IMG/VR virus record: IMGVR_UViG_3300045988_173726
Coordinates: 96,001 to 160,000 of that record
Source: a virus
Reading direction: 5' to 3' (one strand)
DNA length: 64,000 nucleotides
The notes beneath the pieces are model-generated. The model was not told the DNA's origin and did no database searches. It saw only the letters and a list, made by a program, of their open reading frames with translations. Every line of letters begins with the position of its first letter. The first letter of the stretch is position 1. A program made the position numbers and the translations under genes. Below are positions 1 to 16,751 of this stretch, piece after piece.

Positions 1-2
1 AA

Positions 3-950
3 CAAAGGAATCTAAGGTTAAGGGTAGTTGCGAAGAAGTCAAGGTTAAACAGGCTGAAACAGAAGCTAAAGGCACTAGAGTACCAATTAAAATCTGGAAT
101 GTTAAAGCTTTGTTTCGGTACAAAACGGCTACTTAAACAAGACCATGATAAGTTTGTTGAACAGCGAGACAGCCAAATGACTCTCATAGGAGCTAAAGAG
201 AAACCAGCGTGTAATCCAGTTTTACAGTTGACTTATAATCGAAGGAGTAATCAGTTTTTGATTCGGTTGCGGAAAGATTTCGGAGGGTATAAGTCAGCAA
301 GAGGTGAGGATAGATATGCTTATGGAAAGGTTTATTTCAATCTTCATAAGACACAGCTTGTATCAATTTTGAGGTATAAGACTAGTCCTCTATCTTATAG
401 AATAATCAAGATGAATGGCAGATATTACCTATATTGTATATTTGAGTTTCAAGTAAGTGCTGGCGATATAGTTACTCGTTCTTCTTACGGAACGATAGGG
501 CTGGACTTTAACAAAGGTTTTGTGACCTTATCAGAGACGAATCAATACGGTCATCTAGTAAAAACACAGTTTATGCCATATCGGTTTAAGTCTGGAAACA
601 AGACAAATACAGACCTACAAGCAATAGCAAATCATGTAGCTAAACTAGCATTGGTAACAGGAAAAGATGTTTGTATAGAGAATCTTGATTTTAGAGCAAA
701 GAAAGCTAAGACAGAATCAAAGATAGGAAAGAAATACAACGAGATGCTTCATTCGTTAGCCTATCGGGAGTTTAGTGACGCGATGAAAAGTGTAGCATAT
801 AGAAACAGAGTTAGATTAAATAAAGTAAATCCAGCGTGGACATCATGGTTAGCAGATAGGATTTATTGTAAGTCTATGAAGTTGAATATACATACTGGAG
901 CTTCATATGTAATAGCAAGGCGTGGACAGGGTTATAAAGACGCTGTGTAA
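3..950 (+). CDS. TnpB-like RuvC-fold protein, copy 1 (5' end lies outside the window); no zinc finger, RuvC-III Asp replaced
   Basis: The frame is open from the window edge. It aligns codon-for-codon with about residue 128 onward of the 4401..5732 ORF. Motifs: GLDFNKG (RuvC-I-like), CIENLD (RuvC-II-like), NPAWTSW (PAYTSQ-like), NIHTGASYVIARRG at the C-terminus. Confidence 0.8.
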   Translation, partial: QRNLRLRVVAKKSRLNRLKQKLKALEYQLKSGMLKLCFGTKRLLKQDHDKFVEQRDSQMTLIGAKEKPACNPVLQLTYNRRSNQFLIRLRKDFGGYKSARGEDRYAYGKVYFNLHKTQLVSILRYKTSPLSYRIIKMNGRYYLYCIFEFQVSAGDIVTRSSYGTIGLDFNKGFVTLSETNQYGHLVKTQFMPYRFKSGNKTNTDLQAIANHVAKLALVTGKDVCIENLDFRAKKAKTESKIGKKYNEMLHSLAYREFSDAMKSVAYRNRVRLNKVNPAWTSWLADRIYCKSMKLNIHTGASYVIARRGQGYKDAV

Positions 951-1176
951 GGAGCATCTAACAATCAATCCTATACAGATGTATTCAACGCAAGACAGTT
1001 GAGCATTTCCCTGTAGGATTAAGTTTACTAGAAACTCTGATAACAATTCTCATTGTGTGGCTACGGTCGAAATGGAATGAGTCTGGATGGAATAGGTTAG
1101 CCGTAAGACCTTGGGTTGGAAAACTCTAAAATTGAGCTAGAAATGTGGATTTCTTAGCTATTTTCTAGTTACGGCT
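951..1176 (+). ncRNA. Conserved structured non-coding module 3' of TnpB-like copy 1 (omega-RNA-like scaffold candidate)
   Basis: No ORF. Alignable to 5733..5965. Stems 968-973/1014-1019 (extended by 976-978/1011-1013 across a 2-nt bulge) and 1097-1106/1169-1178 stay paired in the other copy through compensatory substitutions. Homology stops at the 3' arm of the closing stem. Confidence 0.45.
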
Positions 1177-1334
1177 AACGCCTGCGGAGCGAGAAGAGGT
1201 TTTACGGGGCTTAGAAGCATAAAGCCCCGTAGACGCACGAGACGGCGTTTTACGGGCGGTTAGAGGTTTAAGCCTAAGGAATAGCCTAGGGGCAGTTAGG
1301 CGGCTTGGAGAGGCGTGTAGCGCGTCAGAGAGGG

Positions 1335-1649
1335 ATGAGGGACGATATGGGAGAGCAGAATAGAAATCCGCTTGAGGGGTTACTTGAGGTACGGCGTGAG
1401 GTAAGAAAGCTTTGTCCAGAGCTTTTTCCGAAAGAGGAGCGAGTAGCCTACGGGGTAGTAGGCGAGACAGGAGAGCCTTCGGTGGCGCTTCAAAAGTTTA
1501 ATAAGCTATTGGCGGCACAGACGGGCAGTAAGACAGGAAAGAAGCGAAAGACAGCGGTAAAAGTCCCAGCAAAGCAAGGAAAGGTCGGAGACGGCGAATT
1601 TACGGGAACGAGTTTATTTGAGGCGATGAAACGAGGGGGAGTGCTATGA
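1335..1649 (+). CDS. Hypothetical Lys-rich small protein
   Basis: ORF with in-frame ATGs at 1335 and 1347 after GAGAGGGA. The stop overlaps the next start as ATGA at 1646. The track start at 1305 is a TTG inside a hairpin-rich leader, so the start is uncertain. Confidence 0.5.
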   Translation: MRDDMGEQNRNPLEGLLEVRREVRKLCPELFPKEERVAYGVVGETGEPSVALQKFNKLLAAQTGSKTGKKRKTAVKVPAKQGKVGDGEFTGTSLFEAMKRGGVL

Positions 1650-2065
1650 GTAAGCGCGTGTATGCGAAAGCCGAGACGGTACGAGTTCTAGATAGGTGGG
1701 ACGAAGAAGCGGAAGCTTCACTACAACTGCTTGCGTCCCCGAAGGCAATCGTAAGTCGTGTGAGGACAAATCCGAGAGGGTATTTCAAGCGTGTTAAGTA
1801 TGTTGTTCGACACGAAGGGAATGAATTAACTGAGGTTATAGTGAATTGTGAGGATTTTGATGCAGAGTCACCTTTCTTTGTCGGGACAGAGGAGATGATG
1901 TTTGTGTTTTCAACGCGGGGCAGTATACCTTGTACTTCTTTTACCGTCAAAATTAGCTTTGCAACAGGTTCTATCAAGATATTCGGAACTATAGAAGCGA
2001 TAGGATACTTGACAGACTGGCTTCATGTTCCATTTACAGATTTTAAGCTTGTGAGATACAGGTAA
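1646..2065 (+). CDS. Array paralogue A1 (SRVRTNP / DWLHVP small-protein family), function unknown
   Basis: ATG after GAGGGGGA. Shares VYAKA, SRVRTNP.G, YVVR, TGSI.IFG and L.DWLHVP..DFK with neighbouring ORFs. Confidence 0.8.
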   Translation: MSKRVYAKAETVRVLDRWDEEAEASLQLLASPKAIVSRVRTNPRGYFKRVKYVVRHEGNELTEVIVNCEDFDAESPFFVGTEEMMFVFSTRGSIPCTSFTVKISFATGSIKIFGTIEAIGYLTDWLHVPFTDFKLVRYR

Positions 2066-2083
2066 GAGAATGGGGGTTTTGTT

Positions 2084-2494
2084 GTGAAAGTATATGCGAA
2101 AGCAGTGAAATTGAGAGTACCAGACAGGTGTGACGGGGATATACATGTCACGCTTCAAATGGTTAAGCCTCTAAATGCGGTTTTAAGTAGAATAATGACA
2201 ACGCCGAACGGACGGTTAGTTCGTTCAGAGTATGTTGTTCGGAACGAGCAGGGAGTAACAACTCTTAGAGCAAATTTTGGTGAGTTTTGCGCAGAATCAC
2301 CTGTACCTGACGGCACAGAGCGGATAAGGCTTAGATTTTTAGTACGAGGTGGAGCAATACACACCTCAATTCGTGTCAATATCAATCTTTTGACTGGCTC
2401 TATAGATATATTTGGAAAGTATGGGACAGTCGCAGACTTGACTGACTGGCTTCATGTGTCGCCTAGCGATTTTAAGATTGTGAGAGCCAAGTAA
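2084..2494 (+). CDS. Array paralogue A2, function unknown
   Basis: GTG start after GGGGG. Motifs VYAKA, LSRIMTTPNG, YVVRNE, TGSIDIFG, LTDWLHVSPSDFK. Confidence 0.8.
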   Translation: MKVYAKAVKLRVPDRCDGDIHVTLQMVKPLNAVLSRIMTTPNGRLVRSEYVVRNEQGVTTLRANFGEFCAESPVPDGTERIRLRFLVRGGAIHTSIRVNINLLTGSIDIFGKYGTVADLTDWLHVSPSDFKIVRAK

Positions 2495-2516
2495 GAAAAG
2501 TTAGCGGGGGAGGTTT

Positions 2517-2933
2517 ATGAGTGGTCGAGTTTACGCGAGAGCAGGGAAGATGCGGGTCAGTCCGTTTCGAGATAGCGACAATGATACTGTACGGGCTACA
2601 CTTCAACGGGTAATATATCCGAGGTCATTTCTAAGTCGGTTAAGAACAAATCCGAAGGCGGAGTTTGTTAGCGCTGAATGCGTCATTCGTAATAGAGCAG
2701 AGAGTATACCGCTACGGTTTGAGGATTTGGTAGCTTTTCATTTCCCCATAGGAACGGTAGGTGTGACTTTAAGGTTTAAGCCGCGCTATAGTTTCGGAGA
2801 CAGTCTACTCTCTATTAAGACTAACCTTATCACAGACGATATAGAGGATATAGAGATAGTCGGGAAAAGAGAAGCGGTTGTAGACTTGTTAGAGTGGTTA
2901 CATGTGCCGCTGTCAGAGTTTCGATTGAAGTAG
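2517..2933 (+). CDS. Array paralogue A3, function unknown
   Basis: ATG after GGGGGAGG. Motifs VYARA, SRLRTNPKA, FPIGTVGVTLRF, IEIVGKREAVVDLLEWLHVPLSEF. Confidence 0.8.
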   Translation: MSGRVYARAGKMRVSPFRDSDNDTVRATLQRVIYPRSFLSRLRTNPKAEFVSAECVIRNRAESIPLRFEDLVAFHFPIGTVGVTLRFKPRYSFGDSLLSIKTNLITDDIEDIEIVGKREAVVDLLEWLHVPLSEFRLK

Positions 2934-2946
2934 TTTGGGGTGGTCT

Positions 2947-3402
2947 ATGAGTAAGAAGAGTAAGAAACAGTACGCGAGAGCTGAAGTAATAAGTCCATTT
3001 CTGGGGAGCGGTGGCGATGTGATAAAAGCTTGTCTTAGTATAGTTGTTTCTCCTATGGCATTTGTACGTCGGGTAATAGCGAATAAAATTGGTAAGCTAG
3101 CGGGTGTTGAGTACATTGCTTCTCGTGAAGCTGGCTATCTTCCGATACTGGCAGAAGATTTCCTAGCCAATGCGGATTTACCTAGTAACACGAAATGTGT
3201 AAGGCTTAAGTTCATGTTGCATAGTAGTTTATCCAGCAGTCTATCGGGTGGTATATTCTTAGTATTTGTTAGCTTCCGAGTTGGTCGTGTAGAAATACTC
3301 GGAAAGATGAATACAGTAGTAGCCCTAGTCGATTGGCTTAATGTTCCGTTTTCGGAATTTGAATTTATCCTTCCGAGTTCAGATTCATTGTGTTTAGGTT
3401 AG
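2947..3402 (+). CDS. Array paralogue A4, function unknown
   Basis: In-frame ATG at 2947 (the track start at 2935 is TTG). Motifs QYARAEV, VRRVIANK, VEILGKMNTVVALVDWLNVPFSEF. Confidence 0.75.
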   Translation: MSKKSKKQYARAEVISPFLGSGGDVIKACLSIVVSPMAFVRRVIANKIGKLAGVEYIASREAGYLPILAEDFLANADLPSNTKCVRLKFMLHSSLSSSLSGGIFLVFVSFRVGRVEILGKMNTVVALVDWLNVPFSEFEFILPSSDSLCLG

Positions 3403-3415
3403 GGGGTTTGTGGAT

Positions 3416-3838
3416 ATGAGTGGCAGGAAGTATTTGGATGTGGGCCATTTGAAGATAAGTAGTTCTGGTGGTATGCGAGGTCTATTGCATGTAACTTGCA
3501 AGACTAGCGCTTCTCTAAAGGCACTTGCGAGTAGAGTTTGCACGAATCCGCATAGTAGATTAACGGAAGCCTATTATTTAGTGGCGGGAAGTAGTGGGCG
3601 GCTTAATATCGAGGAGCTAAGTGTGTTGGACTTAAAAGCCTTTCGTTTACCCGAGGTGGCTGTTGGGCTTAGACTTGATTTTTCATCAAAAGGTAAGCTA
3701 GAAAGCAGGATAGGCGGCGAGGAGTTTTCAGTTTGGATTAACTCTGTGGAGAGTAAGCTGGAGATAATTGGCAAGAGAAACGCCGTTATAGAGTTGTGCG
3801 CGTGGCTTAATGCGCCGCTTTCAGATTTAATTAAGTAA
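3416..3838 (+). CDS. Array paralogue A5, function unknown
   Basis: ATG at 3416 lies 9 nt after AGGGGG (track start GTG at 3410). Motifs ASRVCTNPHS, LEIIGKRNAVIELCAWLNAPLSD. Confidence 0.75.
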   Translation: MSGRKYLDVGHLKISSSGGMRGLLHVTCKTSASLKALASRVCTNPHSRLTEAYYLVAGSSGRLNIEELSVLDLKAFRLPEVAVGLRLDFSSKGKLESRIGGEEFSVWINSVESKLEIIGKRNAVIELCAWLNAPLSDLIK

Positions 3839-3861
3839 TTCTGTGTTTAGGAGGTGAGATT

Positions 3862-4257
3862 GTGGGCGAGAGACGGTATCTGGACGATAGTTCCGTAAAG
3901 ATAGCGTGGGTTGGAGATAAATTAGACGCAAAGTTTAGAGTTGTCTCGTCATTAAAGGCGGTTGCGAGCCGTGTTAGGACAAACCCAAAAGGTAAGTTAG
4001 TGGAGGCTTCATGCGTAGTAGCTAGTGGCGGCAGTGTAAGATATGTTATGCTAAGGGTAGCGGATTTAGTTGCCTTCCGTTTACCTGTTGGGACTACTAG
4101 CGTTTTGCTTATTTTTGAGTCGAAAGGTAGTAGGCGCGGGGAAACATTTTCCATTATAATTGACTTAGCGGGGAAGTCGTTAGAGATAATTGGTAACAGA
4201 AACGAAGTAGTAGATTTGTGTTCGTGGCTTCATGAGCCGATTTGGGGGAATATATGA
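3862..4257 (+). CDS. Array paralogue A6, function unknown
   Basis: GTG 7 nt after AGGAGG. Motifs ASRVRTNPKG, FRLPVGTTSV, LEIIGNRNEVVDLCSWLHEP. Confidence 0.8.
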   Translation: MGERRYLDDSSVKIAWVGDKLDAKFRVVSSLKAVASRVRTNPKGKLVEASCVVASGGSVRYVMLRVADLVAFRLPVGTTSVLLIFESKGSRRGETFSIIIDLAGKSLEIIGNRNEVVDLCSWLHEPIWGNI

Positions 4258-4310
4258 CAGAACGAAGAAGCAGTGACAAGAGTTCCGTAAAGATAGCGCG
4301 GATAAATTAG
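4254..4310 (+). pseudogene. 18-codon remnant of a further array paralogue (MTERRSSDKSSVKIARIN*)
   Basis: ATGA-coupled to the A6 stop. The N-terminus matches A6 (MGERRYLDDSSVKIAW) and the gene at 6000 (MEKRRSSGKIKVKRD). It is truncated by a TAG just upstream of the TnpB-like copy 2. Confidence 0.45.
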
Positions 4311-4400
4311 CCGTTTCCAACGATGCAGAGAAGCGGGAATTACGTCTCAATTTTCTATGTTTTAGTTAAGGTTTTCATTAGGGGCATAGGGTGAATTGTA

Positions 4401-5732
4401 ATGCAGAAGCTAAAGTTGACTATAGTAACACAGCTACACGAGGGAAGTAACCGAGGTTTAATTGAATATATGGAAGCTTCCCGTAGGGATTATGGGAAAG
4501 CAATGCGAGAGACTTTCTATGCAATTAAGCGTGGTGGTTTTGATAAGTCAAAGTACAACACATGCCTTCAACATAGACATGGAATTGTTAGTCGAACTGC
4601 AAATGCTATCATTTCTGACGCTCAAGGAAGATTTTATGCTCTTAAGGCGCTGAAAGAGTGTGAGAGGAAGCAGTTAGAGCGAAAGATTAAATATCTTGAG
4701 AGTACAGTTATTCCTAAGTTAGTTGAGCAAAGGAATCAGAATTCAACTAAGCTTCAAGACGGAGTATTTGTTTCGTTGATTCAACAAAGGAATCTAAGGT
4801 TAAGGGTAGTTTCAAAGAAGTCTAAACTAAATAGGTTGAAGCAGAAGCTTGAAGTGTTGAAGTATCAACTAGAAATAGGAAAGTTAAAGCTTTGTTTTGG
4901 AACGAAAAGGTTGTTAAAGCAAGACCAAGAGAAGTTTATTGAGCAAAGGGATAGTCAGATGACTTTCATAGGAGCTAAGGGGGAGCTAGCATGTAATCAC
5001 AACTTGCAGTTGCGCTACAATCGAAGAAGTAATCAGTTTTTGGTTCGATTGCGTAAAGATTTCGGAGGGTATAAGTTAGTTAAAGGCGAAGATAGGTATG
5101 TTTACGGCAAAGTTTATTTCAATCATCACAAGGGACAGCTTGTTTCGATTCTGAGGTCTAAAACTAGTCCTTTATCTTATAGGATAGTCAAAAGGAAAGG
5201 TAGGTATTATTTACACTGTATATTTGAGTTTCAAGTAGGGAACAGCGGTATAGTTACTCGTTCTTCTTACGGAACGGTAGGATTAGACTTTAACAAAGGG
5301 TTTGTGACCTTATCAGAGACGAATCAGTACGGACATTTAGTTAAAACAGAGTTTATGCCTTATTGTTTCGAGTCTGGAAGTAAAACAAAAACAGACTTAC
5401 AGGATGTAGCTAATCATGTAGTTAAACTAGCTTTACGAACAGGTAAGGATATTTGTATAGAGAATCTTGATTTTAGAAGAACAAAAGCAAAGACAGAAAC
5501 AAAGATAGGAAAGAAATACAATGCTATGCTTCATTCTTTAGCCTATCGAGAGTTCAGTGACGCGATGGGGAGTGTATGTTATAGGAACAGTGTTGGATTG
5601 CACAAAGTAAATCCAGCGTGGACATCATGGTTTGCAGAGAGGATTTATTGTAAACCTATGAAGTTGAACATACATACTGGGGCTTCGTATGTAATAGCAA
5701 GGCGTGGGCAAGGGTATAAGGATGCTATATAA
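4401..5732 (+). CDS. TnpB-like RuvC-fold protein, copy 2 (full length, 443 aa); no zinc finger, RuvC-III Asp replaced by His
   Basis: GLDFNKG, CIENLDFRR, NPAWTSW. Only about 15 aa, with no CxxC pairs, lie between NPAWTSW and NIHTGASYVIARRG. The genuine TnpB in this window (24489..25676) serves as an internal comparator. Confidence 0.75.
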   Translation: MQKLKLTIVTQLHEGSNRGLIEYMEASRRDYGKAMRETFYAIKRGGFDKSKYNTCLQHRHGIVSRTANAIISDAQGRFYALKALKECERKQLERKIKYLESTVIPKLVEQRNQNSTKLQDGVFVSLIQQRNLRLRVVSKKSKLNRLKQKLEVLKYQLEIGKLKLCFGTKRLLKQDQEKFIEQRDSQMTFIGAKGELACNHNLQLRYNRRSNQFLVRLRKDFGGYKLVKGEDRYVYGKVYFNHHKGQLVSILRSKTSPLSYRIVKRKGRYYLHCIFEFQVGNSGIVTRSSYGTVGLDFNKGFVTLSETNQYGHLVKTEFMPYCFESGSKTKTDLQDVANHVVKLALRTGKDICIENLDFRRTKAKTETKIGKKYNAMLHSLAYREFSDAMGSVCYRNSVGLHKVNPAWTSWFAERIYCKPMKLNIHTGASYVIARRGQGYKDAI

Positions 5733-5965
5733 ATAGCATTTAACAATCAGTCCTACACAGATGTATCAACGCAAGACAGTTGAGCATTTCCCTGTAGGAC
5801 AAAGTTTAATTAGAAGCTCTGGCAATAATTCTCATTGTGTGGCTCTACGGTCGAAATGGGATGAGTTAGGGTGGAATAGGTTAACCGTAAGACCTTGAGT
5901 TGAAAAACTCTAAAATTGAGCTGGGAATATTGATTTATTAAATTTCGTATTTTCTAGTTACGGTT
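5733..5965 (+). ncRNA. Conserved structured non-coding module 3' of TnpB-like copy 2 (omega-RNA-like scaffold candidate)
   Basis: Aligns to 951..1176. Stems 5750-5755/5795-5800 (extended by 5758-5760/5792-5794 across a 2-nt bulge) and 5883-5890/5958-5965. Similarity to copy 1 ends at 5965. Confidence 0.45.
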
Positions 5966-5999
5966 CATGGCTTTATGTGCCGATTTGGAGGAGTGTGTG

Positions 6000-6671
6000 A
6001 TGGAAAAAAGAAGAAGCAGTGGAAAGATTAAAGTTAAAAGGGACGCTAATGGTCGTTTAGTTCAGACTTTTGACGCCCAAGTTAAAGTTAAGAGGGACGC
6101 TAATGGTGATTTAGTGCAGATTGGCGGCGATAAAGAAACCGTGCGGGTTAAGGCATCTAGTAGGCACGGTATAGGCACTAGGAATTTGGCAGGGGCAGGT
6201 TTGGGTGTTCATCATCTTGTTAAGGACGCGAGCGGTCGTTTAATTGTGTGTGATAATATTGGTAGTGTTCTTAGGGGTAATCTTGGGGGTAAAAAGATAC
6301 ATTCTATAGATATAGACGGTCGGGTTCAGTTATGGAGAGGTAACGGAGTTTGTAGTGTATCATTTGGGATACTGATGGAGCCAAGAGAGTTTTTGGAGGG
6401 ATTGGTACAGTATCCGAATTGCACGAGAGCTGAAGTAGCTCTGATGTATCCGAGTTTTAAGTCTACAAAGTTTACTGCTAATTATAGCTTAGATAAGCTG
6501 ATTAGAAATGGGCTTTCAGAGGACACTCGTGGTATGATTCTTTATTTTAGTCGCAATAGGGAAGTAAACTATAACCTTACAGCGATGGTAAGCTTTATGG
6601 ATAGGATACTGACGCTTACAGGGGATAATGATTATGTGGCGGCGTTGGTTCATTGGCTTAGTGCGAGGTGA
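6000..6671 (+). CDS. Array paralogue B1 (longer, 223 aa), function unknown
   Basis: ATG at 6000 lies 6 nt after GGAGGAG (5987-5993); the track start at 5967 falls in the leader. There is an internal 54-nt tandem repeat (KVKRDANG.LVQ twice, 6030-6119). The C-terminus, LTLTGDNDYVAALVHWLSAR, matches the family. Confidence 0.75.
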   Translation: MEKRRSSGKIKVKRDANGRLVQTFDAQVKVKRDANGDLVQIGGDKETVRVKASSRHGIGTRNLAGAGLGVHHLVKDASGRLIVCDNIGSVLRGNLGGKKIHSIDIDGRVQLWRGNGVCSVSFGILMEPREFLEGLVQYPNCTRAEVALMYPSFKSTKFTANYSLDKLIRNGLSEDTRGMILYFSRNREVNYNLTAMVSFMDRILTLTGDNDYVAALVHWLSAR

Positions 6672-7024
6672 CTTGTGTGAATAGACCGATGGTAAAGCTC
6701 TTACATGTCGAGCAGAATCACGGCGGGGTTGATTGGAGTAGGGTGCTTCACTATAAGATTCTGATAAACACATTAACCTTCGCGAAGATTCTTGTAAAGA
6801 AGAATTTAGATGAAATAGAGTTTATACAGTGTGTGGAGTATGTAAAAGACGAGTGTAGCGGAGCTTGGAAGAGTGAGTGGAGTCGTATTAAGCCAGACGA
6901 GTTCTTAAAGCTTAAGTATCGGCGTAAAGAACGCAAGGAGTATATTATCAACTTCACGAGCTGTAATGTGGCGGTAATTCGTTGTTGGCGGCGGGAAGCG
7001 GATATTGTAGAGGTTAGTTTATAG
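6668..7024 (+). CDS. Small protein within the array (B2), weak family resemblance, function unknown
   Basis: The ORF fills the gap between B1 and B3. The GTG at 6668 overlaps the B1 stop, with an alternative ATG at 6689. No clear RBS. Confidence 0.55.
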   Translation: MTCVNRPMVKLLHVEQNHGGVDWSRVLHYKILINTLTFAKILVKKNLDEIEFIQCVEYVKDECSGAWKSEWSRIKPDEFLKLKYRRKERKEYIINFTSCNVAVIRCWRREADIVEVSL

Positions 7025-7042
7025 CGTTTATAGGGGGAGTTT

Positions 7043-7372
7043 ATGCGGAAAGCGCGAATTAAGCAAGTTGAAGTAGGGAAGTGGAAGCTAACGGAGTCGG
7101 TAGAGAGTTTTCTTCGCTTTGCGCTTAGGGAAAGCAACTTTAGTAACGCATTATTCAAGGTTACTGTAGGAGATGGGGAGCAGTGGAAACAGGTTTCGGT
7201 AGTCGAGGCAGTTAGCTTTGCGAAGCAGACGCTACGGTTTATCTGTATTGAGTATGGCGACCCGTCTACGATGCGAAGTTGTAGTATGTGTATAGACGCA
7301 GGGAGCAGGCTTTTAACGCTTTTTGGTGACGAGGAGCTTATCGGATTTGTTCTTTCCGAGTGCGGGGTGTGA
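7043..7372 (+). CDS. Array paralogue B3, function unknown
   Basis: ATG after GGGGGAG. The C-terminus, RLLTLFGDEELIGFVLSECG, resembles the family's terminal motif. Confidence 0.7.
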   Translation: MRKARIKQVEVGKWKLTESVESFLRFALRESNFSNALFKVTVGDGEQWKQVSVVEAVSFAKQTLRFICIEYGDPSTMRSCSMCIDAGSRLLTLFGDEELIGFVLSECGV

Positions 7373-7803
7373 GAGTGGCGAAAAGAAAGCGTCTTGAAGT
7401 TATTAAGCGTTATATTAGTCCAGACCTGTGTTATGCAGAGGTAACTTGTGAGCTAGGCTGTAAGCCTTCTGCAATTTGTAGCTGGGCGCTTAAGACCTCT
7501 GGGGTTGCAGAGTATGTGGAAATAATGGCAGAGCATAAATTAGGCTTGTGGGGGCGAGTAACACAGTCGGTTCTTGAGCGTGATGTTTTAATAGGGGGCA
7601 GAGAGTTCATGTTCTCTTTTGGTACGAGACCTGATGACACTTTTCTTACCCTTTTTCTTGACTGTAGGTATAGGCAAGTGCGTATTTGTGGAATACCGGA
7701 GTTGATTTTCTCGTTTATAAAGGCATTTAATGGCGCGATAGTGATAAAAAGCCTTTTATATGAGTATGCAAAGGCTGTCTTACAGCACGAAGAGGTGGAA
7801 TGA
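7360..7803 (+). CDS. Array paralogue B4, function unknown
   Basis: GTG at 7360 or in-frame GTG at 7375 after GCGGGGTG. Motif VRICGIPELIFSFIKAFNG. Confidence 0.65.
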   Translation: MRGVRVAKRKRLEVIKRYISPDLCYAEVTCELGCKPSAICSWALKTSGVAEYVEIMAEHKLGLWGRVTQSVLERDVLIGGREFMFSFGTRPDDTFLTLFLDCRYRQVRICGIPELIFSFIKAFNGAIVIKSLLYEYAKAVLQHEEVE

Positions 7804-8189
7804 TGAATGGCAGAGTTTTAATTAGCGAAGAGCCGCTAGAGGTGACGCCTATTAGTTGGGATACCCGCGCTATCTTTCGTACTGTGGCTACACCGAGGAA
7901 GATATTAGAGAGGATTCTAAGCATGCCGCAGAGCGATAGTTATAGTGCAAACTTGATTTTGGCAGACGGTTCATTGAATCCGATAAGCGAAGCGGCTCTT
8001 AGGTCTTTGAAGTTTCCGAGAGGCACAGTTGGAGTAGAGTTTTCCCATTCTTATGTGATTAGTGGTGGTTGGGTGACAATTTGGATAGCGATTAAATTTC
8101 GTGAAAAGACGCTTACTTTGCAGGGTGATGCGTGTGGTGTGAGTTCGGCAGTAACTTGGCTTTTAACAACAGAAGAGACGCGGGAGTAG
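7800..8189 (+). CDS. Array paralogue B5, function unknown
   Basis: ATGATG after GAGGTGG. TPRKILERILSMPQS resembles SRVRTNP, FPRGTVGVEF resembles the A3 motif FPIGTVGV, and TLTLQGDACGVSSAVTWLL matches the family C-terminus. Confidence 0.8.
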   Translation: MMNGRVLISEEPLEVTPISWDTRAIFRTVATPRKILERILSMPQSDSYSANLILADGSLNPISEAALRSLKFPRGTVGVEFSHSYVISGGWVTIWIAIKFREKTLTLQGDACGVSSAVTWLLTTEETRE

Positions 8190-8192
8190 CCT

Positions 8193-8627
8193 ATGTATCA
8201 AGTATATACTTACACGTTGAGCGAGCTATACAGTTTGTTTGACAATGGCAGGATTAAGTTGAAAGCGCCTAGTGATAGGACGCTCTCGAATGAGCATGTG
8301 CGGCTCTTGCTTGACGGGATATTTTGCGGTTATCCGATAGCGCCGCTTGTGATAATTAGAGGAGCTACAGAGCTAGGAGAGCCAGTTATTAAGGTTTTGC
8401 ATGGCACGTTTGTTTTGTCTGTTCTGCTCGGATACCGTAAGGGAGCAATACGGAGCAAAGGTTATTTGAGTTTTAAGAGCGTATCTGATAGGTCAAAGCA
8501 CGGAGACAGCGATGATTTTATAAAGCTTATGAACTATGATGTACCTGTTATAGCGCTTAGTGATGCGAAGAGTGGAGAAGCAGAGGCAACGCTACGGTTG
8601 ATTAGAGCAATGGGAAAGCACGAGTGA
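8193..8627 (+). CDS. Mini DUF262/ParB-like N-domain protein C1 (degenerate DGQQR position)
   Basis: LSELYSLFDNGRIKL, LLLDGIFCGYPIAPLVIIRG, VLHGTFVLSVLLGY, DVPVIALSD...LRLIRAMG. The order of motifs matches the DUF262 N-terminal core, but the QR/DGQQR residues are replaced. Confidence 0.5.
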   Translation: MYQVYTYTLSELYSLFDNGRIKLKAPSDRTLSNEHVRLLLDGIFCGYPIAPLVIIRGATELGEPVIKVLHGTFVLSVLLGYRKGAIRSKGYLSFKSVSDRSKHGDSDDFIKLMNYDVPVIALSDAKSGEAEATLRLIRAMGKHE

Positions 8628-8635
8628 GGTAGAAT

Positions 8636-9229
8636 ATGGGAGCGGTCATTAAGAAAGAATTTTGGACGGTAGAGCAGATTTTTCGCTTTGTGGATGAGAG
8701 ATTGGATAAGAACGCCTTTTACACTTTGAGAACAGAGGAAGGTGCAAGTAAGGGCGCAGTGATAGATGATATAACTACGCTAGCGCAGAGTCTTGAGGAG
8801 TTTCCAAACGATGTGTTAAACTGTGTATTTAATAATTATCCACTTCCGAATATCGTACTTTGCCGTGCTAGGTTATTTCCTGACGAGAGATTTAGAGAGG
8901 GTATAGGCGAAGATGTTTGGGCGCTTTGTTCTGGTGAATTAATACTTGGTACACTTTATGCCTACCGTGAAGGTTTAGCTAATTGGCGTGCGGTTGAAGA
9001 GGATGCCGAGATTGATTATGATGACGCCGATGATGCTAATTTTGACTGGTGGAATGGTGAAAGTTATCAGACGCTTGTACAAAAGGCTTCCATGGGGGAT
9101 AGAGAGGCGAAGGAGAGGTTGGAAGCCTTTAATAACTGTGAGATTCCGTTTATTCGTATAATGGAGATTGATGACAAGGAATACATTTGGGAAATTGACG
9201 AAGTGCTTGAGTATTGCTCCGACTACTAA
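8636..9229 (+). CDS. Mini DUF262/ParB-like paralogue C2 (with acidic insert)
   Basis: WTVEQIFRFVDE, NNYPLPNIVLCRA, CSGELILGTLYAY, CEIPFIRIMEID. Confidence 0.5.
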   Translation: MGAVIKKEFWTVEQIFRFVDERLDKNAFYTLRTEEGASKGAVIDDITTLAQSLEEFPNDVLNCVFNNYPLPNIVLCRARLFPDERFREGIGEDVWALCSGELILGTLYAYREGLANWRAVEEDAEIDYDDADDANFDWWNGESYQTLVQKASMGDREAKERLEAFNNCEIPFIRIMEIDDKEYIWEIDEVLEYCSDY

Positions 9230-9239
9230 GAGGCAGTAT

Positions 9240-9635
9240 ATGCAGACAAGCGGGACGGTAACGGTCAAGTGGCTTTACGATAAGTATGACAAACTAGTTA
9301 CGGCGGGAGCATTAAAGCCGTTAAGGTTCGGGGCGATTGTTTACGAGAACGAAGGTCACTATAAAGACATTTTGTCGGCTATCGTGCAGGGCTTGCCTAT
9401 TCCGCAGATAGTGGTAGGGCGAGTGAGAGCGGGGGAGACAGAGCGTTATAGCATAGTTTCTGGCGTGTTTATTCTATGTAGTTTGCTTAATTTTCGTGCC
9501 GAGAGCGGTGGTATGAGCGCAGAGCGAGTATTACAGATTTTAAGCTATTCTGTAAATCTAACGATGCTTGATACGATGACACCCCAGCGTTTAACAGAGG
9601 TAAGTAAGCTTCTAGGCGAGGTTCTGATATGGTAA
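9240..9635 (+). CDS. Mini DUF262/ParB-like paralogue C3
   Basis: In-frame ATG at 9240 lies 6 nt after AAGAGG; the track start at 9168 overlaps C2. Motifs QGLPIPQIVVGRV, VSGVFILCSLLNF. Confidence 0.5.
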   Translation: MQTSGTVTVKWLYDKYDKLVTAGALKPLRFGAIVYENEGHYKDILSAIVQGLPIPQIVVGRVRAGETERYSIVSGVFILCSLLNFRAESGGMSAERVLQILSYSVNLTMLDTMTPQRLTEVSKLLGEVLIW

Positions 9636-9997
9636 ACTACGAAGTAATGGGGATGTCGGTTAGGGACTTGTATCGAAGGTTAAAAAACGGGCAGATTATT
9701 TTAGAGTCAAAATACTTTGTGAAAGCTACGACAAGTAGCGAGGAGTTATTGCTTCGTGGAGTGCTTTCTGGCGTCCCGTTTCCTGCTATCGTGCTAATGC
9801 GAGAGAGCAAGGGCTATAGCGTAATTCTCGGCAGGGAGCTGTTGAGTGTGCTTATATCATTGCTTGATAGTAACGTTTATGAGGAGCTTGACGATATTGA
9901 CAAGTTTATGCTTATGCGTCACTGCTTTTATGTAAATATTGTGGAAGGTCGTGACAGCATAGATATTGTTGTAGAGGTTTTCGAGAGCTTTCGTTAG
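9629..9997 (+). CDS. Mini DUF262/ParB-like paralogue C4
   Basis: VRDLYRRLKNGQIIL, SGVPFPAIVLMRE, ILGRELLSVLISL. Confidence 0.5.
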   Translation: MVNYEVMGMSVRDLYRRLKNGQIILESKYFVKATTSSEELLLRGVLSGVPFPAIVLMRESKGYSVILGRELLSVLISLLDSNVYEELDDIDKFMLMRHCFYVNIVEGRDSIDIVVEVFESFR

Positions 9998-10010
9998 GAG
10001 GACTTGTTGC

Positions 10011-10379
10011 ATGAAGCACTTTAACTGTTACAACATCGACTTAACTATTTTTGATATACATGATAAGTGTTCCAGTGGAGATTTGTTGTACAAGTGTGGC
10101 AGTGATATTAAAGAGAGTGACATTGAGCTGTTAAATACCTGCCTTGAGTCTGGCTATCCGCTTCCAACACTGGTAGTTTACATAGGGAAAGACGCGCCAG
10201 CAAGGGTTCTGGTGGGTAATAGACTTGTTGCAACGATTAGCGCGTTTGTGACTATGGGAAAGTACAAAAGTTCAGTGCGAGAGAGGTTGTTTAAGAGCAT
10301 TCATTGTATCATAATAGATTCAGCTAGTCTCAGTGACGCGAATAACATTCGGCGTTTATTTAAGAGGTTTTCAGCATGA
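10011..10379 (+). CDS. Mini DUF262/ParB-like paralogue C5
   Basis: ATG after AGGAGG. Motifs ESGYPLPTLVVYIG, LVGNRLVATISAF. Confidence 0.5.
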   Translation: MKHFNCYNIDLTIFDIHDKCSSGDLLYKCGSDIKESDIELLNTCLESGYPLPTLVVYIGKDAPARVLVGNRLVATISAFVTMGKYKSSVRERLFKSIHCIIIDSASLSDANNIRRLFKRFSA

Positions 10380-10771
10380 GCAAGAAGTATAGGGAGATTA
10401 AGATTAAACCAGAGGAGTTAGGGCACTTGGCAGATAATTTCAAGTTATCTGTCGTGAATATTGGCAATCGGGTAGCTACTAAGCTAGACATTAGCAGAGT
10501 GAAGTCGCTTGCGGCGCATGGATTTCCGTTTCCTACGCTTGTTTTAGCAGAGTATTTAGTGGACGGGAATAGAAAGTATCGTGTTGTTTATGGCGCTGGG
10601 CTTGTATCGGCTATTTTGTCCTACATAGCTAACGCTTCGGAGAAGGAAAAGGATACGCAAGCGTTTAAGGAGTTTATGCGGTACGAGTTTACGGCTTTTG
10701 TGGTGGGCAGTGATAACAAGGAGAACGATTACTTGTTTGATGCATTTAAGGGAATAAACAGAAAGGGTTAA
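10376..10771 (+). CDS. Mini DUF262/ParB-like paralogue C6
   Basis: ATGA coupling. Motifs AHGFPFPTLVLAEY, VYGAGLVSAILSY. Confidence 0.5.
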   Translation: MSKKYREIKIKPEELGHLADNFKLSVVNIGNRVATKLDISRVKSLAAHGFPFPTLVLAEYLVDGNRKYRVVYGAGLVSAILSYIANASEKEKDTQAFKEFMRYEFTAFVVGSDNKENDYLFDAFKGINRKG

Positions 10772-12361
10772 ATGGAGATAAAAGAGCTACTTAATGGGGT
10801 AATAGACGAGAGAGAGCTTGATTATCGGGTGTTAATCGGGGAAGAGGGGGCTTCAAAGCCCCCGTTAATCCCGTTTTTTAATTTAATGCCTGCATTAAAC
10901 TTAATGCATCGGCATTTGGTTCGTGGCGGGAGTGTGTTAATTCACGCAGATGTTGATATGGACGGGTTAGGCGCAGCGAAAGTTGTAAGAGAGGAGCTTA
11001 ATGCGATTGGGTTTAAGGATATAAAGACCTGTATCAACAGTAAGCGGGAGCATGGGATGAATCCGCAGATAGTGTCTCATGTGAATAGCAAGAAGCCGAG
11101 TTTATTTATAGTCGTAGACAGTAGTAGTAACGACTTAGAGTATATAAAGGCTTTGGAGTGCGATGTAATGGTCTTAGACCATCATATAGTAGAGCATAGC
11201 GAGTATTCTGGAAAGACAGCTGGCGGGGAGTATCTAATCATAAACTGTATGATAGATAACAAGGCAGATGGTTATGAAGCAGACGAGGATATGTCGGGAG
11301 CATTGGTAGCTTACGAGTTTTTCCGTCAGTATGAGGACAGAGTAGACAGGCATTATCTTGAGGGTCTTAAGTTGTATCAGTGGGTCGGGGTAACTTTGAT
11401 TTCCGACATCATACGGACGGGGAATGCAAGGAACCAGTGGTATATCGAAAGGACGATAAATCAGACAGAGCTTAGAGACGAGTTGCGGGTTTTAATGCGG
11501 GTGTTGAATCCGAACGAGAAGAGGCTAACGCGGTCGTTTATCGCCTATAAGCTAGTCCCTGCGGTAAATAAGGCGATACGGGCGGGGGCTACAGCGGTAG
11601 CACTGTATGTAATCATGGCACATCCAGAGGAAGCATATAAGCTAGAGGTTTACGGGAAGTATCAGCCGAAGGTAAACGACATTCCGAAGCGGGTTGTGCG
11701 GATAGAGAACGGAATCGGGATAGTCGATTTAGGTGAGCTTAATTTAGCGGTGAATGTGCTTGGGTTAGCGGTAAACTATACGGGCTTGGTAGCGGCTATG
11801 GTAATGAGAAAGCATAACTGTAGTGCGATAGCATATGTGCGTGATACGGATAGCGAGGGGAACACGATTTTCCGTGGGTCATTTCGCGGGAGAGCGCACG
11901 GATTGCCCTATAAGGAGATAGCCACGAAGTATAGTATTATGGCGCAGGGGCATACGAACGCCTTTGGTATAAGGGTAAAGCCTAGTGAGTTAAGCCGTTT
12001 AACGGGGGCGCTAGGTATTAGTGAGAGTGCCTATCGGTATAAGCCGTATTGCACGATGTATCCGATACGGGATGACTTGCGGGGGCGACATTTTAAGGAT
12101 TTAGGGGAGCTAAGAGAGGGGAAGAAACTTTTGTATCTCGGGATAGCGAATAGTCGGTTGTCGTCCGATGAGCAGATAAATGTGACGATGGAGAGTAAGA
12201 ATCTAGTGCTTACGGAGGAGCATACGAACTACTACAAGTACGAGATAGACGGCTACGAGGTAACAGCCTTTGAGCGCGTGAAAACGGAATTTGTAGACAT
12301 ATATTTTGAGTATGGTGAGTATCTTCGTGGCTATGTGCGAGCTAGACACGACAGCATTTAG
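10772..12361 (+). CDS. RecJ-like DHH-family phosphoesterase / single-strand DNA exonuclease
   Basis: DHH motifs in order: HADVDMDG, VVDSSSND, VLDHH. DHHA1-like AQGHTNAFG near the C-terminal half. Confidence 0.7.
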   Translation: MEIKELLNGVIDERELDYRVLIGEEGASKPPLIPFFNLMPALNLMHRHLVRGGSVLIHADVDMDGLGAAKVVREELNAIGFKDIKTCINSKREHGMNPQIVSHVNSKKPSLFIVVDSSSNDLEYIKALECDVMVLDHHIVEHSEYSGKTAGGEYLIINCMIDNKADGYEADEDMSGALVAYEFFRQYEDRVDRHYLEGLKLYQWVGVTLISDIIRTGNARNQWYIERTINQTELRDELRVLMRVLNPNEKRLTRSFIAYKLVPAVNKAIRAGATAVALYVIMAHPEEAYKLEVYGKYQPKVNDIPKRVVRIENGIGIVDLGELNLAVNVLGLAVNYTGLVAAMVMRKHNCSAIAYVRDTDSEGNTIFRGSFRGRAHGLPYKEIATKYSIMAQGHTNAFGIRVKPSELSRLTGALGISESAYRYKPYCTMYPIRDDLRGRHFKDLGELREGKKLLYLGIANSRLSSDEQINVTMESKNLVLTEEHTNYYKYEIDGYEVTAFERVKTEFVDIYFEYGEYLRGYVRARHDSI

Positions 12362-12370
12362 ACCTCACTT

Positions 12371-12429
12371 AATACCGCCTTTGTATCTTGGGCATAACTT
12401 AAAGTCTCAAGAGAAAGGCGGTATTTTGC
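12371..12429 (+). terminator. Long hairpin after the RecJ-like gene
   Basis: AATACCGCCTTT ... AAAGGCGGTATT with an inner TCTTG/CAAGA stem, followed by TTTTG. Confidence 0.5.
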
Positions 12430-12430
12430 T

Positions 12431-13261
12431 GTGAAGATTGGAAATAAAGTCGTTCACAAGACATCATTGAATGAGGGAAAGAGCCTTGTGCCTGTAATTG
12501 CGGTAGGTGCGGGTATCGTAGGCGCAGTGGTTTATGTGTCGCTTGTCGGTAGGAATGCGAGTAAGAGCGTACAGGTTGCGCAGTTAAAGAGTAGCGTTTA
12601 TAAGAATCAGCCGATTACGCTGGATATGCTACAGCCGTATGATATGTTGCAGGCAGAGTATGACAAGCAGATAATGTCCACGGCGAATAGTGACGGCACG
12701 GTGGAGAAGCGTTTAGTTGCTTGGAAAGATGTGCAGGGCTATTTGTCGCAGGGTGCGTTTGCGGCGTATCAGCTTCCGAAGGAGAGTTTTCTCGATTTAA
12801 GGACGCTTATGACGAGCAGAGTGGACAATAGCGACAGTGTTCTTTACAGTTTCCCGGGAAAAGAGGTTGTACAGCTTGAAGTAAACGGTGCAGACTTAAA
12901 TGCGTTCAAGACTTTCATACAACCTGGAGATAAAGTAAACATTGATGCTATATACTCCGAGGATATGCAGAGTGGTAACGACAGAGTTAAGATATATCGT
13001 TCCGAGCCAGTGTTTACGGGCATTATGATAGCGGATATTATCAACAGTTCGGGTGCTTCGGTATTAGACATGTATGCAGAGTATAACGCAATGTCCGAGG
13101 TAGATAAGGCGGCATTGGATAACGATGCGACATGGCAGGAGCAGACAGAGCCGAGTTCGCTGTTAGTCGCCTTAACGCCAGATGAGAAGGACAGCTATTA
13201 TAAGTTCTTAAATCGCGACAATGTGAAGTTTAAGGTGTCGTTGCCGCAGAGAGCGGACTAA
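12431..13261 (+). CDS. CpaB/RcpC-like pilus assembly protein (N-terminal TM anchor)
   Basis: N-terminal TM segment LVPVIAVGAGIVGAVVYVSLVG, then a SAF-like segment (VQVAQLKSSVYKNQPITLDML). Sits at the head of the Tad-type operon. GTG start with a weak RBS. Confidence 0.5.
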   Translation: MKIGNKVVHKTSLNEGKSLVPVIAVGAGIVGAVVYVSLVGRNASKSVQVAQLKSSVYKNQPITLDMLQPYDMLQAEYDKQIMSTANSDGTVEKRLVAWKDVQGYLSQGAFAAYQLPKESFLDLRTLMTSRVDNSDSVLYSFPGKEVVQLEVNGADLNAFKTFIQPGDKVNIDAIYSEDMQSGNDRVKIYRSEPVFTGIMIADIINSSGASVLDMYAEYNAMSEVDKAALDNDATWQEQTEPSSLLVALTPDEKDSYYKFLNRDNVKFKVSLPQRAD

Positions 13262-13273
13262 GGGGGTAGGTTC

Positions 13274-14197
13274 ATGGCAGATATGCAGGATATACTTAAC
13301 TCTTCGGATATGGCTGACGGAAACGACTTACGGAGTAAGACAGATAAGGCGGTAGGTCGCTTAATCAGTCGTTTTTCTGGGGCAGATGAGAGTAGGAAGA
13401 TAGTAAAGCGGGTGTTAAACAATGTCATCGTGTTTATGGGAGCAAGCGGTGGCGCGGGAGCAAGCACGCTGGTCGCGACAGAAGCGGTTGCGATGAAGGA
13501 GAAGGGTCTTACGGTAGCGGTAGTTGACCTTGGAATCATGTTTCCGAGTCAGCATATCTATTTTGACTTAGACCAGTCTATCGGAAAAGCAGATTTAGTT
13601 TCGTATCTTTCGGGTAATAACGGGTTAAATGTGTCGCTTGAGTATAGCGATGTGCTGTTTAACAACGAGGCTACGGGGGTGGCAACGCTAACTGCTTGTA
13701 ACAGGACGCTTCGGGACTATGTGGTTATTGACAGTTCAAATGACGCGGTGCAAGCTTTAACGGAGGCATTAAACAGGCTTTCGAGTTTATTTGATGTAGT
13801 TCTAATCGACTGTAAGCTTGATTTAAGCTCTATGCTTGTGCAGACGACTCTGTTTAGGGCAGATAACATCTACTTGGTTATGGACGATGGGGTGCAGTCG
13901 CTCATAAATGTCAGTAAGCTCCGCGCAAACCTAGACGATTCGGGTATAAACACGAATAAGGTGCGTTATATCATGAACAAGCGTAAGAGTTTCTATTACG
14001 CAGAAAACAACTTAAAAGCGCTCGGTATAGAGTTAATCGGTATTTTGCCGTTTGAGATGGGTGTAGTCGAGTGCGGTTTAAGGGGACAGCTATTTACGGT
14101 ATCGGGAAAGAATACTAGCAAGACTTCCCCGAAGTATTTAGAGGCGGTAGACAGTCTAACGGCATCAATCCTTGAGATAGGAGGATATACAGAGTGA
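13274..14197 (+). CDS. TadZ/CpaE-like ParA/MinD-fold protein with a P-loop lacking the Lys
   Basis: VIVFMGASGGAGASTLVA...LTVAVVDLG. The later D-rich strand FDVVLIDC fits the MinD/ParA fold. Lies immediately upstream of the TadA-type ATPase. Confidence 0.65.
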   Translation: MADMQDILNSSDMADGNDLRSKTDKAVGRLISRFSGADESRKIVKRVLNNVIVFMGASGGAGASTLVATEAVAMKEKGLTVAVVDLGIMFPSQHIYFDLDQSIGKADLVSYLSGNNGLNVSLEYSDVLFNNEATGVATLTACNRTLRDYVVIDSSNDAVQALTEALNRLSSLFDVVLIDCKLDLSSMLVQTTLFRADNIYLVMDDGVQSLINVSKLRANLDDSGINTNKVRYIMNKRKSFYYAENNLKALGIELIGILPFEMGVVECGLRGQLFTVSGKNTSKTSPKYLEAVDSLTASILEIGGYTE

Positions 14198-15744
14198 ATC
14201 CAGAGCAGTATTTGCATATGCAGTCAAAGCGTGGTGCAAAGCAGACCACGACAGACAAGACAGCGCGTCCGTTTGAGAGTGTATTAACGGAGTGCAGAGG
14301 GTATATCGACAAGAATGCCGATTCGCTGGAGAGTAAGTCGGGTACAGAAAAGACAAAGAAGATAGGCGAGTTGATTTTGTCGTATCTGATGCAGGCGAAG
14401 CCGTTGGTCGAGGGGTTTATAAACGCGGACGGCACTTCCGACACACAGGGGTTAACCCAGCGTTTAACGCAGGAAATCACGGATTACGGTATTTTAACGG
14501 ATGCGTTAGAGAACGATGACATTTTCGAGATACGAGATAACGGTCGAGAGATAAAGGTCGAGATAAAGGGACATGTAGAGGACTATCGCGACCCAAAGAC
14601 AGGTCATATCGTAAGGTTTGACTCGCCAGAACAGCAGAAAACGGTCATTGCGAAGTTGCTCGGCGATGTGAGACTTACGCCAAAGGACGCAGTGGTTAAT
14701 GCGAGAACGGTGCAGGGCTATCGTGTAGCGGCATTGCATAGTTCGGCGCAGTCGAAAGACCCGATAGACCCGTCAAACGACCAGTATGCTTCGTTTGTTC
14801 TCCGTAAGTTTAAGCGGAATCGAATGAATCTTGGCGACATAGTAAAGAGCGGTACGCTAAGTGACAACATGGCGCGTTTACTTGCACTTAGTATGTCGGG
14901 AAGTTTAACTTTCTTCACCGTTGGACCAACATCTTCTGGTAAGACGACAACGAACCAAGCGATTTTGCAGGCAACGCCGCCTAAGCAGAGAGTTGTGTTG
15001 CTACAGAATCCGTCCGAGATAGACCTTCGTATGCGAGATTCAACGGGTCGTATCATAAACGATGTGTTGCACTTAGAGGCAAAGGACGACATACAGAATC
15101 CGCTCCCGACTTCTCCGACTATGGAGAACTTGATGAAGCACATTTTGCGACTTTCTCCGACATTTGTGTGTTTCGGTGAGCTTCGAGATAATGTAGAGTT
15201 TCAGCGTGGCATCAGTATCGGTTTAGCGGGTCATCCGTTTAACTGCACCTATCACGCCGAGGATTCGGCGGGTGCAATCGACCGATTCTTAAAGGCGTAT
15301 ATAGCGGCTTCTGGAGAGGGTATAGACACTTCGATGAGTACACTAACGAGGCTTTTGAATTTGATTATTGTGCAGAAGATACTGCCAGACGGCACGCGAA
15401 AGATTTTACAGATTTCGGAGGTAATCGGCACAGACCCGAACGATTCAAGCAAGCCGATAATCAACGATATTTACAGGTATGTGATTGACGAAGAGCCAGA
15501 CCTTGACGATGAGGGAAATGTTCTTCGGATTAACGGTAAGCATAAGCGGGTCGGTTGTTTATCGGAGAAGATAGTGCATAAGTTAAAAATCGAGGGTGTT
15601 GCGACAACGCGGTTTGATTTTCTGTTAAAGCCGCCGACAGCGGACGAGGTAGAGACTTATGAGGGCAACTACGAGACGATTATCCATTACGGCTTGGATA
15701 AGCTAAGAGAGCAGAAGCGCATGAATGCGTTAAAGAAGGACTAA
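14194..15744 (+). CDS. tadA: TadA/CpaF-type secretion ATPase (VirB11/PilT superfamily)
   Basis: Walker A GPTSSGKTTT, Asp-box-like LLQNPSEID, Walker B-like VCFGELRD, His-box GHPFNCTYHA. GTG start after AGGAGG. Confidence 0.85.
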   Translation: MNPEQYLHMQSKRGAKQTTTDKTARPFESVLTECRGYIDKNADSLESKSGTEKTKKIGELILSYLMQAKPLVEGFINADGTSDTQGLTQRLTQEITDYGILTDALENDDIFEIRDNGREIKVEIKGHVEDYRDPKTGHIVRFDSPEQQKTVIAKLLGDVRLTPKDAVVNARTVQGYRVAALHSSAQSKDPIDPSNDQYASFVLRKFKRNRMNLGDIVKSGTLSDNMARLLALSMSGSLTFFTVGPTSSGKTTTNQAILQATPPKQRVVLLQNPSEIDLRMRDSTGRIINDVLHLEAKDDIQNPLPTSPTMENLMKHILRLSPTFVCFGELRDNVEFQRGISIGLAGHPFNCTYHAEDSAGAIDRFLKAYIAASGEGIDTSMSTLTRLLNLIIVQKILPDGTRKILQISEVIGTDPNDSSKPIINDIYRYVIDEEPDLDDEGNVLRINGKHKRVGCLSEKIVHKLKIEGVATTRFDFLLKPPTADEVETYEGNYETIIHYGLDKLREQKRMNALKKD

Positions 15745-15756
15745 GGGGGTGATGGA

Positions 15757-16749: not shown

Positions 16750-16751
16750 GT

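Follow-up and report, generated by a model that had tools for sequence, protein, structure and literature searches.

The window analysed here, a 64,000-nt stretch of viral DNA, carries two related TnpB-like genes, each followed by a similar module. Does this module encode a guide RNA for the TnpB-like protein, or does it serve as a DNA end or as an untranslated region? The gene of copy 1 is represented by its 3' part (315 codons; 3..950, + strand), its start being lost at the window edge. The gene of copy 2 is complete and encodes 443 aa (4401..5732, +). The copy 1 protein shares 81.6% aa identity with residues 129-443 of copy 2 (tblastn). From the stop codon to the end of the module, the two copies (225 and 232 nt) are 84.9% identical (197 matches), and no ORF of at least 50 aa is present in either post-stop stretch. 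The original prediction had described both stretches as alignable and free of ORFs, and this is borne out. The downstream DNA of the two copies aligns as far as ...AGTTACGG and is unrelated after this point. Identity over the next 60-200 nt is 52-55%, i.e., background. Differences between the ORFs fall mainly on the third codon position (100/316, vs 46 and 28 at the other two). The module is hence not a by-product of recent duplication, given its identity of 84.9% vs 81.6% for the ORF, the third-position bias and the background identity of the flanks. Judged by these comparisons, the non-coding module is constrained at least as much as the protein.

The module belongs to a known RNA family. 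A cmscan search of the whole window against Rfam 15 returned RF03065 (IS605-orfB-I) at 968..1178 (179.1 bits, E 4e-42) and at 5750..5967 (202.8 bits, E 2e-48). The gathering score of this family is 94.2 bits, and both matches are full-length (model positions 1-214). With the end set from 30 copies (see below), the omega-RNA-like scaffolds occupy 968..1174 (+) and 5750..5963 (+). A search by protein similarity led to 11 IMG/VR loci (54-83% identity); in all of them RF03065 lies directly 3' of the stop codon, scoring 180-192 bits. An Enterococcus genome gave a match of 120 bits. A DNA pattern derived from the scaffold led to 30 further viral stretches and to Enterococcus genomes. Every fetched protein relative with scanned or available downstream DNA has the same RNA just past its stop codon, and the gap between stop codon and scaffold is 12-58 nt in all protein-bearing loci. 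Matches in Streptococcus oralis and in a Desulfobulbus MAG were obtained with the pattern only; they scored below the Rfam threshold and were rejected.

The downstream module is a structured RNA of the curated family RF03065. The window copies match the full model, form the same helices and lie 3' of an 'orfB' gene, with no structural difference from the family. The 'IS605' in the family name is historical. The Rfam 15 articles use RF03065 to illustrate how R-scape improved a structure, in this case by 14 additional covarying pairs. The literature searched states neither a function nor a protein clade for it and lists it solely as an sRNA motif, and its name is absent from the Weinberg 2017 main text.

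The covariation seen in the two copies holds in the wider family. An alignment of 30 distinct scaffolds gave an RNAalifold consensus of 42 pairs in seven helices, and 26 of the 42 pairs are changed on both sides. Paired cells amount to 97.1% in this alignment vs 83.5% in shuffles, and none of the 500 shuffles reaches the observed value. When the partners are slid by 1-3 columns, pairing falls to 35-50%. The alignment contains 152 G:U cells, and pairing is 97% on the sense strand vs 86% when the structure is read on the antisense one. Since the G:U pairs fit only the sense strand, it is the sense transcript that folds. Single-sequence folding energies are modestly better than those of shuffles (z -1.4 and -2.6); it is covariation and the covariance model, rather than folding energy, that support the structure.

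Two stems had been singled out from the two copies. Stem 1 is real (ATCCTA 968-973/TAGGAT 1014-1019; GTCCTA 5750-5755/TAGGAC 5795-5800), and its first pair covaries family-wide (GC 12, AU 10, GU 4 in 30 copies). As for stem 2, the closing stem, the helix itself stands: its core CCGUA/UACGG is invariant in 30/30 copies. The proposed change of its outermost pair from G:C to A:U is not supported family-wide, this pair being AU in 18 copies, GU in 5, GC in 2 and unpaired in 5. The last base of the outermost pair is probably flank rather than scaffold. In copy 1, an extra TTA/TAA pairing draws on tail bases and is not conserved.

The 3' end of the scaffold is fixed. It reads TTACGG plus one pyrimidine or G in 30/30 copies, whereas the following 30-45 nt are unrelated among all 30. 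This family-wide boundary lies at 1169-1174 in copy 1 and at 5958-5963 in copy 2, both on the + strand. Similarity had been predicted to stop exactly at the 3' arm of the closing stem; the arm is correct, and the exact point lies 1-2 nt earlier, at 1174 and 5963. The flanking DNA that follows is the putative guide. In copy 1 it would span about 1175..1195 (+), and it is unlike every other tail. In copy 2 it spans 5964..5985 (+) and coincides with the final ~12 codons of a small, paralogous phage gene.

The tails do occur beyond their own flank, at unoccupied homologous sites in related phages. Filled and empty sites were paired by cross-comparison of the fetched loci, and the right junction equals the scaffold end in every pair. 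The copy 1 element is absent from L012, L007 and L044, of which the last two overlap and represent one contig. The empty sites read AAAGGCTT|TAACGCCTGCGGAGCG..., and L044 and L007 agree with copy 1 at 16/16 tail bases. Exact copies of TAACGCCTGCGGAGCG start at L044 4330 and at L007 1148, whereas the one at L012 1403 has 2 mismatches; AAAGGCTT precedes all three. The copy 2 site is empty in L012 (3999-4019) and in the metagenome contig L052, where the neighbouring genes are adjacent. The empty junction reads TTTGTGT|TCGTGGCTTTATGTGCCGATT, with 1 mismatch, and has GTG rather than GG before the target in both L012 and L052. L052, the one further empty genome from a metagenome scan, is equivalent to L012.

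The window itself is the empty allele for another element. The guide of the L018 element is identical over its first 26 nt to 46013..46038; TTTTGGGC precedes this match, which lies where ORF 46001..47437 (DNA_pol3_delta2/AAA, clamp-loader-like) begins. In L018, the first four codons of the clamp-loader-like gene are replaced, and the last hairpin of the scaffold supplies an in-frame ATG (MDLLNFAFSGYG|EQSLSW...). A sibling element lies within a tRNA-Tyr gene (L031 filled vs L020 2112..2194 empty). It replaces the 5' two-thirds of the gene, and the remainder (T-arm and acceptor 3' half) is its guide. Phages of the L031/L020 kind carry arrays of 9-15 tRNA genes.

Scaffolds are also found on their own. 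A scaffold-only copy lies directly 3' of a tRNA-Leu(tag) gene (L027 11984..12201, - strand, vs L023 5598..5669). It has 212 nt, no protein gene, no left end, GGC on both sides and exact junctions, and may represent either a mobile unit made of scaffold alone or an orphan gene for a guide RNA. L020 and Enterococcus cecorum DSM 20682 (L014) likewise hold solo copies without an upstream gene. The E. cecorum copy (RF03065, 104 bits, 608..839, - strand) has a divergent 5' part and adjoins thrS, with no TnpB-like ORF upstream.

Present in some phages and absent at the identical positions in their relatives, these elements behave, by this comparison, as mobile DNA. That a tail equals an empty site follows from synteny alone, so it demonstrates mobility and the boundary, not guide function. 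No exact match of either window guide was found in IMG/VR, and the 64-kb window holds no second RGG-flanked target for the guides. Three sibling guides were searched as well; two matched only their own site, and the third gave two additional matches of 18-19 nt, which we estimate to lie within chance expectation for a collection of that size.

A short motif recurs next to the targets. At 6/6 clean empty sites, a purine-GG lies 1-3 nt upstream of the target, with the spacing shifted by 2 nt in three of them. The sequences before the six targets are TTAAGG, AGAGGG, TTTGGG, TGTGGG, TAGAGG and TAAAGG. In three of the six clean pairs, the empty site is 2 nt longer at the junction (TT, TT, CA), namely window 1175 vs L012 1403, L004 4556 vs L042 4213, and L005 4557 vs L027 8201; the other three are exact. 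The 2 extra nt would result in a bulge in the guide seed. An RGG-type motif next to the target is a candidate TAM. The scaffold itself always ends in C-GG and left ends start with GG(G); the purine/C difference at -3 would let a complex spare its own donor site. The characterised IS607 TnpBs recognise G-rich TAMs, AGGAG or GAGGG (PMC11061315).

Relatives point to the family of the transposon. ORFs with MerR-HTH and Resolvase domains, which are the two halves of IS607 TnpA, lie directly upstream of the tnpB-like gene in L048, in L017 (Candidatus Enterococcus stercoripullorum) and in the viral contig L019. The L048 protein is 35% identical to the window protein. No Y1 (IS200/IS605) transposase gene was present in the neighbourhoods inspected; the link to Y1 TnpA typical of IS200/IS605 is hence lacking here, and the linked transposases are of the resolvase type. 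IS605-type single-stranded DNA hairpin ends were set aside, as the linked transposases are serine recombinases. No resolvase-like sequence was found beside window copies 1 and 2 either, and the ~100 nt between left end and ATG leave no room for a transposase gene. With no tnpA within or nearby, the window copies are non-autonomous.

The ends of the elements agree with this assignment. IS607 elements have GG termini and insert at (G)GG without target duplication (PMC6188088). The window elements share these features and likewise have no inverted repeats: the right end reads ...TTACGG, the left end starts with GG, and (G)GG is found at empty sites. Among the 12 elements compared, conservation starts ~100 nt upstream of the ATG with GG..TCAGCA GTTTCYAAC... 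In copy 2, the left end and 5' leader span 4300..4400 (+), with GG at 4300-4301 and an approximate boundary. The left end showed no sigma-70-like promoter. The window copies differ from typical IS607 in being without tnpA and in their left junctions, which are replacements or repeats rather than clean insertions. Two replacements comprise 134 nt and 45 nt. At copy 2, a diverged direct repeat of the right flank, with the remnant ORF MTERRSSDKSSVKIARIN*, was identified by comparison with L012 (4217..4290, +); the repeat pair, 4217-4290 vs 5963-6040, encloses the stub of a paralogous gene. Guide 2 matches within this repeat, at 4223..4242, with 3 mismatches. Taken together, the sequences suggest that each copy is quite likely a non-autonomous IS607-family element, composed of a short left end, a tnpB-like gene and the ~212-nt scaffold as right end.

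The surroundings of copy 2 are repetitive. The MTERRSSDKSSVKIARIN* paralogue stub (about 4254..4310) adjoins copy 2 at its left end, and small paralogous ORFs (~115-155 aa) form a tandem array at 1305..4310 and 5964..6671. Several of these paralogues have a common C-terminal coding motif, of the type seen at 4217..4257, and guide 2 matches this motif.

The layout resembles that of known TnpB systems. As in the omega-RNAs or reRNAs of ISDra2 and of the IS607 element ISFba1, the scaffold lies at the right end, in tnpB orientation, with a putative guide made by the flank. The window scaffold differs in that it begins past the stop codon rather than overlapping the ORF. In sequence, the ~212-nt scaffold is unrelated to the RAGATH-18-derived RNA of ISFba1.

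The protein is an unusual member of its superfamily. No Pfam match was obtained for the window protein, including none to TNB. The NCBIfam model guided_TnpB gave weak scores of 34-38 bits (37.8 for copy 1) vs a cut-off of 100, limited to the RuvC-II region. Searches of PDB sequences with the single protein returned weak or sub-threshold TnpB signals, and among PDB entries the family profile matched a Cas12m best at the sequence level (23vu, E 1e-3). An AlphaFold model built from an alignment of 48 diverse relatives reached a pLDDT of 93 (single-sequence AF2 model: 36). Its best Foldseek matches were Cas12f, Cas12m, Cas12e, dCas12f, Fanzor2 and viral 'transposases'. The modelled protein has a Cas12f/TnpB fold.

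In its motifs, the protein departs from canonical TnpB. An hhalign comparison with a canonical TnpB encoded elsewhere in the window was limited to the WED/RuvC-I part. Motif comparison with the same protein identified GxDFN as RuvC-I (D296) and IExLDF as RuvC-II (E354). KLNxHxAAxYVIARRG occupies the place of DRDxNAAxN, a His thereby replacing the third catalytic Asp; H425 aligns with a D of DRDRNAAINL in the canonical protein. About 4,500 close relatives were found in 90% clusters, mostly on contigs of 240-275 kb, some of them labelled Caudoviricetes, and relatives at the 50% level form 1,431 clusters. Of 106 full-length cluster representatives, 105 retain D296, all 106 retain E354 and 105 retain H425. 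The CxxC...CxxC zinc finger is replaced by a linker of 16-18 aa in 106/106, and none has two CxxC. The gene had been called TnpB-like, which holds for the fold; as a D-E-H protein with no zinc finger, it is not a typical TnpB.

These traits recall a described group. RIIIr-4, one of five major TnpB clades, has a RuvC-III Asp to His change and no C4 zinc finger, and is over-represented in viruses (Altae-Tran et al. 2023; PMC10691335). The window protein likewise has the Asp to His change, lacks the C4 zinc finger and is viral; it fits the description of clade RIIIr-4, an atypical TnpB, by these traits. Part of the clade is associated with RHH/MazE-like antitoxins (PMC10691335), and none was seen here. 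The authors took the conserved rearrangement to imply that RIIIr-4 is active (PMC10691335). The RIIIr-4 clade was included in a screen of 59 orthologues, and the main text names only an RII-r5 member as confirmation that dsDNA can be cut by a rearranged site (Nety et al. 2023; PMC10278001). The literature searched contained neither later papers on the RIIIr-4 clade nor a demonstration of its RNA-guided activity.

In view of this evidence, the module is probably the omega-RNA guide scaffold of an IS607-type element. The original prediction of an omega-RNA-like module is strengthened by sense-strand covariation, a gene of the Cas12f/TnpB fold, a fixed 3' end and tails that recur at empty sites. 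Transcription would run from the tnpB-like gene through the scaffold into the flanking DNA. The transcript would be trimmed to the scaffold plus about 16-20 nt of flank, which would act as guide, and the TnpB-like protein would bind this scaffold-guide RNA. The RNP may then recognise the guide sequence beside an RGG-type motif, i.e., the empty allele in a sister or co-infecting phage, and recognition could promote retention or copying of the element at that allele (homing). Transcription, processing, RNP formation, guide length, TAM and the outcome, be it cleavage or binding, are all inferred here.

Would the protein cut its target? To our knowledge, a zinc-finger/TNB domain is present in all characterised TnpB and Cas12 nucleases; double-strand cleavage is thus uncertain for a protein that has none. 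The near-invariant D-E-H site argues for catalysis, while the missing TNB/zinc finger and the similarity to Cas12m would also allow for mere binding. The same guide scaffold could serve a protein that merely binds the target, as TldR or Cas12m do. Such a binder might block or repress transcription or replication at a matching site, e.g., in competing phages, and the D-E-H site might serve RNA processing only. In favour of binding, the RuvC-III Asp is replaced, Cas12m is the best PDB profile match, and both Cas12m and dCas12f are among the fold matches. Moreover, copies in the same genome are only ~80-85% identical and have the look of old copies, not of recent transpositions. The defining traits of TldRs are RuvC changes plus a lost C-terminal ZnF, and the window protein shares with them the lost C-terminal zinc finger, one non-acidic RuvC residue and a phage-borne gene. 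However, the catalytic positions are strictly conserved in the 106 representatives, unlike the decaying sites of TldRs, and a nuclease-dead TldR was set aside for this reason. The elements are also polymorphic insertions with IS607-like ends, present or absent at identical positions as expected of mobile DNA. Their guides match their own empty site and not a distant promoter, the window offers no second RGG-flanked target, and RIIIr-4 was predicted to be active by the authors of the clade. Binding without cleavage is therefore considered unlikely.

The other explanations dispense with a guide altogether. The conserved module might act at the DNA level only, as a transposon end with IS605-type hairpins or IS607 subterminal sites. 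A DNA role in addition is certain, since TTACGG coincides with the IS607-type GG terminus, and the 212-nt scaffold-only copy with exact junctions in L027 is in line with it. A purely DNA-level role is nonetheless very improbable: seven helices over ~212 nt are kept by compensatory changes, the 152 G:U cells work on the sense strand only, and conserved unpaired stretches and the fit to a curated covariance model point to a folded RNA. IS607 serine recombinases act on double-stranded DNA, so the caveat attached to the original prediction, that IS605-type hairpins might explain the conservation, is disfavoured by the serine recombinases linked to relatives, by the strand-specific G:U cells and by the lack of a Y1 transposase in the neighbourhoods inspected. 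The module could also be a cis-acting element in the 3' UTR of the tnpB-like mRNA, controlling its stability, termination or translation. In protein-bearing loci, the scaffold indeed always lies within the 3' UTR, shortly past the stop codon. This explanation is the most remote of those weighed here, as it is contradicted by the solo copies in L027, L020 and E. cecorum L014 and by a boundary that equals the insertion junction exactly; moreover, no terminator-like site or T-run is present between stop codon and scaffold end.

The omega-RNA reading of the module has several consequences. RF03065 and RIIIr-4 have both been described before, separately; here, they are linked explicitly, and the element is identified as IS607-type rather than IS605-type. 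The locus set delimits the scaffold exactly and provides natural guide/target pairs, a candidate RGG motif and three residues to mutate. It also raises the mechanistic question of whether Cas12-type DNA cutting is possible with a His in the active site and without zinc-finger/TNB, an issue also relevant to compact genome editors. For a D-E-H site without a TNB domain, no report of guided DNA cutting was found. The multi-copy, polymorphic distribution in huge phages makes these elements a system for studying homing between viruses.

A more speculative and rather doubtful idea is that RIIIr-4 TnpB and RF03065 RNAs form a phage-against-phage system, in which solo scaffolds supply extra guides in trans. 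If so, the several copies in a ~260-kb genome would each direct a guide at the empty allele of a sister phage, with targets including tRNA genes and the start of the clamp-loader-like gene. On co-infection, the rival genome would then be converted or crippled. Such an arrangement would lead naturally from elements with one gene and one guide towards a multi-guide system.

The window contains a further, canonical TnpB gene at 24489..25676, with Pfam matches to HTH_OrfB_IS605, OrfB_IS605 and a Cas12f1-like TNB. This third protein has the DRDRNAAINL motif and an intact CxxC zinc finger. A RAGATH-18 RNA (RF03064, 69 bits) lies 3' of the gene, at 25713..25793, and together they form the TnpB/reRNA pair known for IS607 from Ren et al. 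2024. Just upstream, tblastn (E 0.02) points to a weak MerR-HTH-like remnant at 24297..24428.

As for the window as a whole (1..64000), blastn against GenBank phages gave no match, and its relatives are IMG/VR contigs of 240-270 kb. Nearly all long ORFs are on the + strand, as is every ORF assigned to a family. Few of the large proteins tested match Pfam or PHROG; those that are recognisable include a DHH protein, a T2SSE ATPase, a partition protein and an endolysin-like repeat protein.
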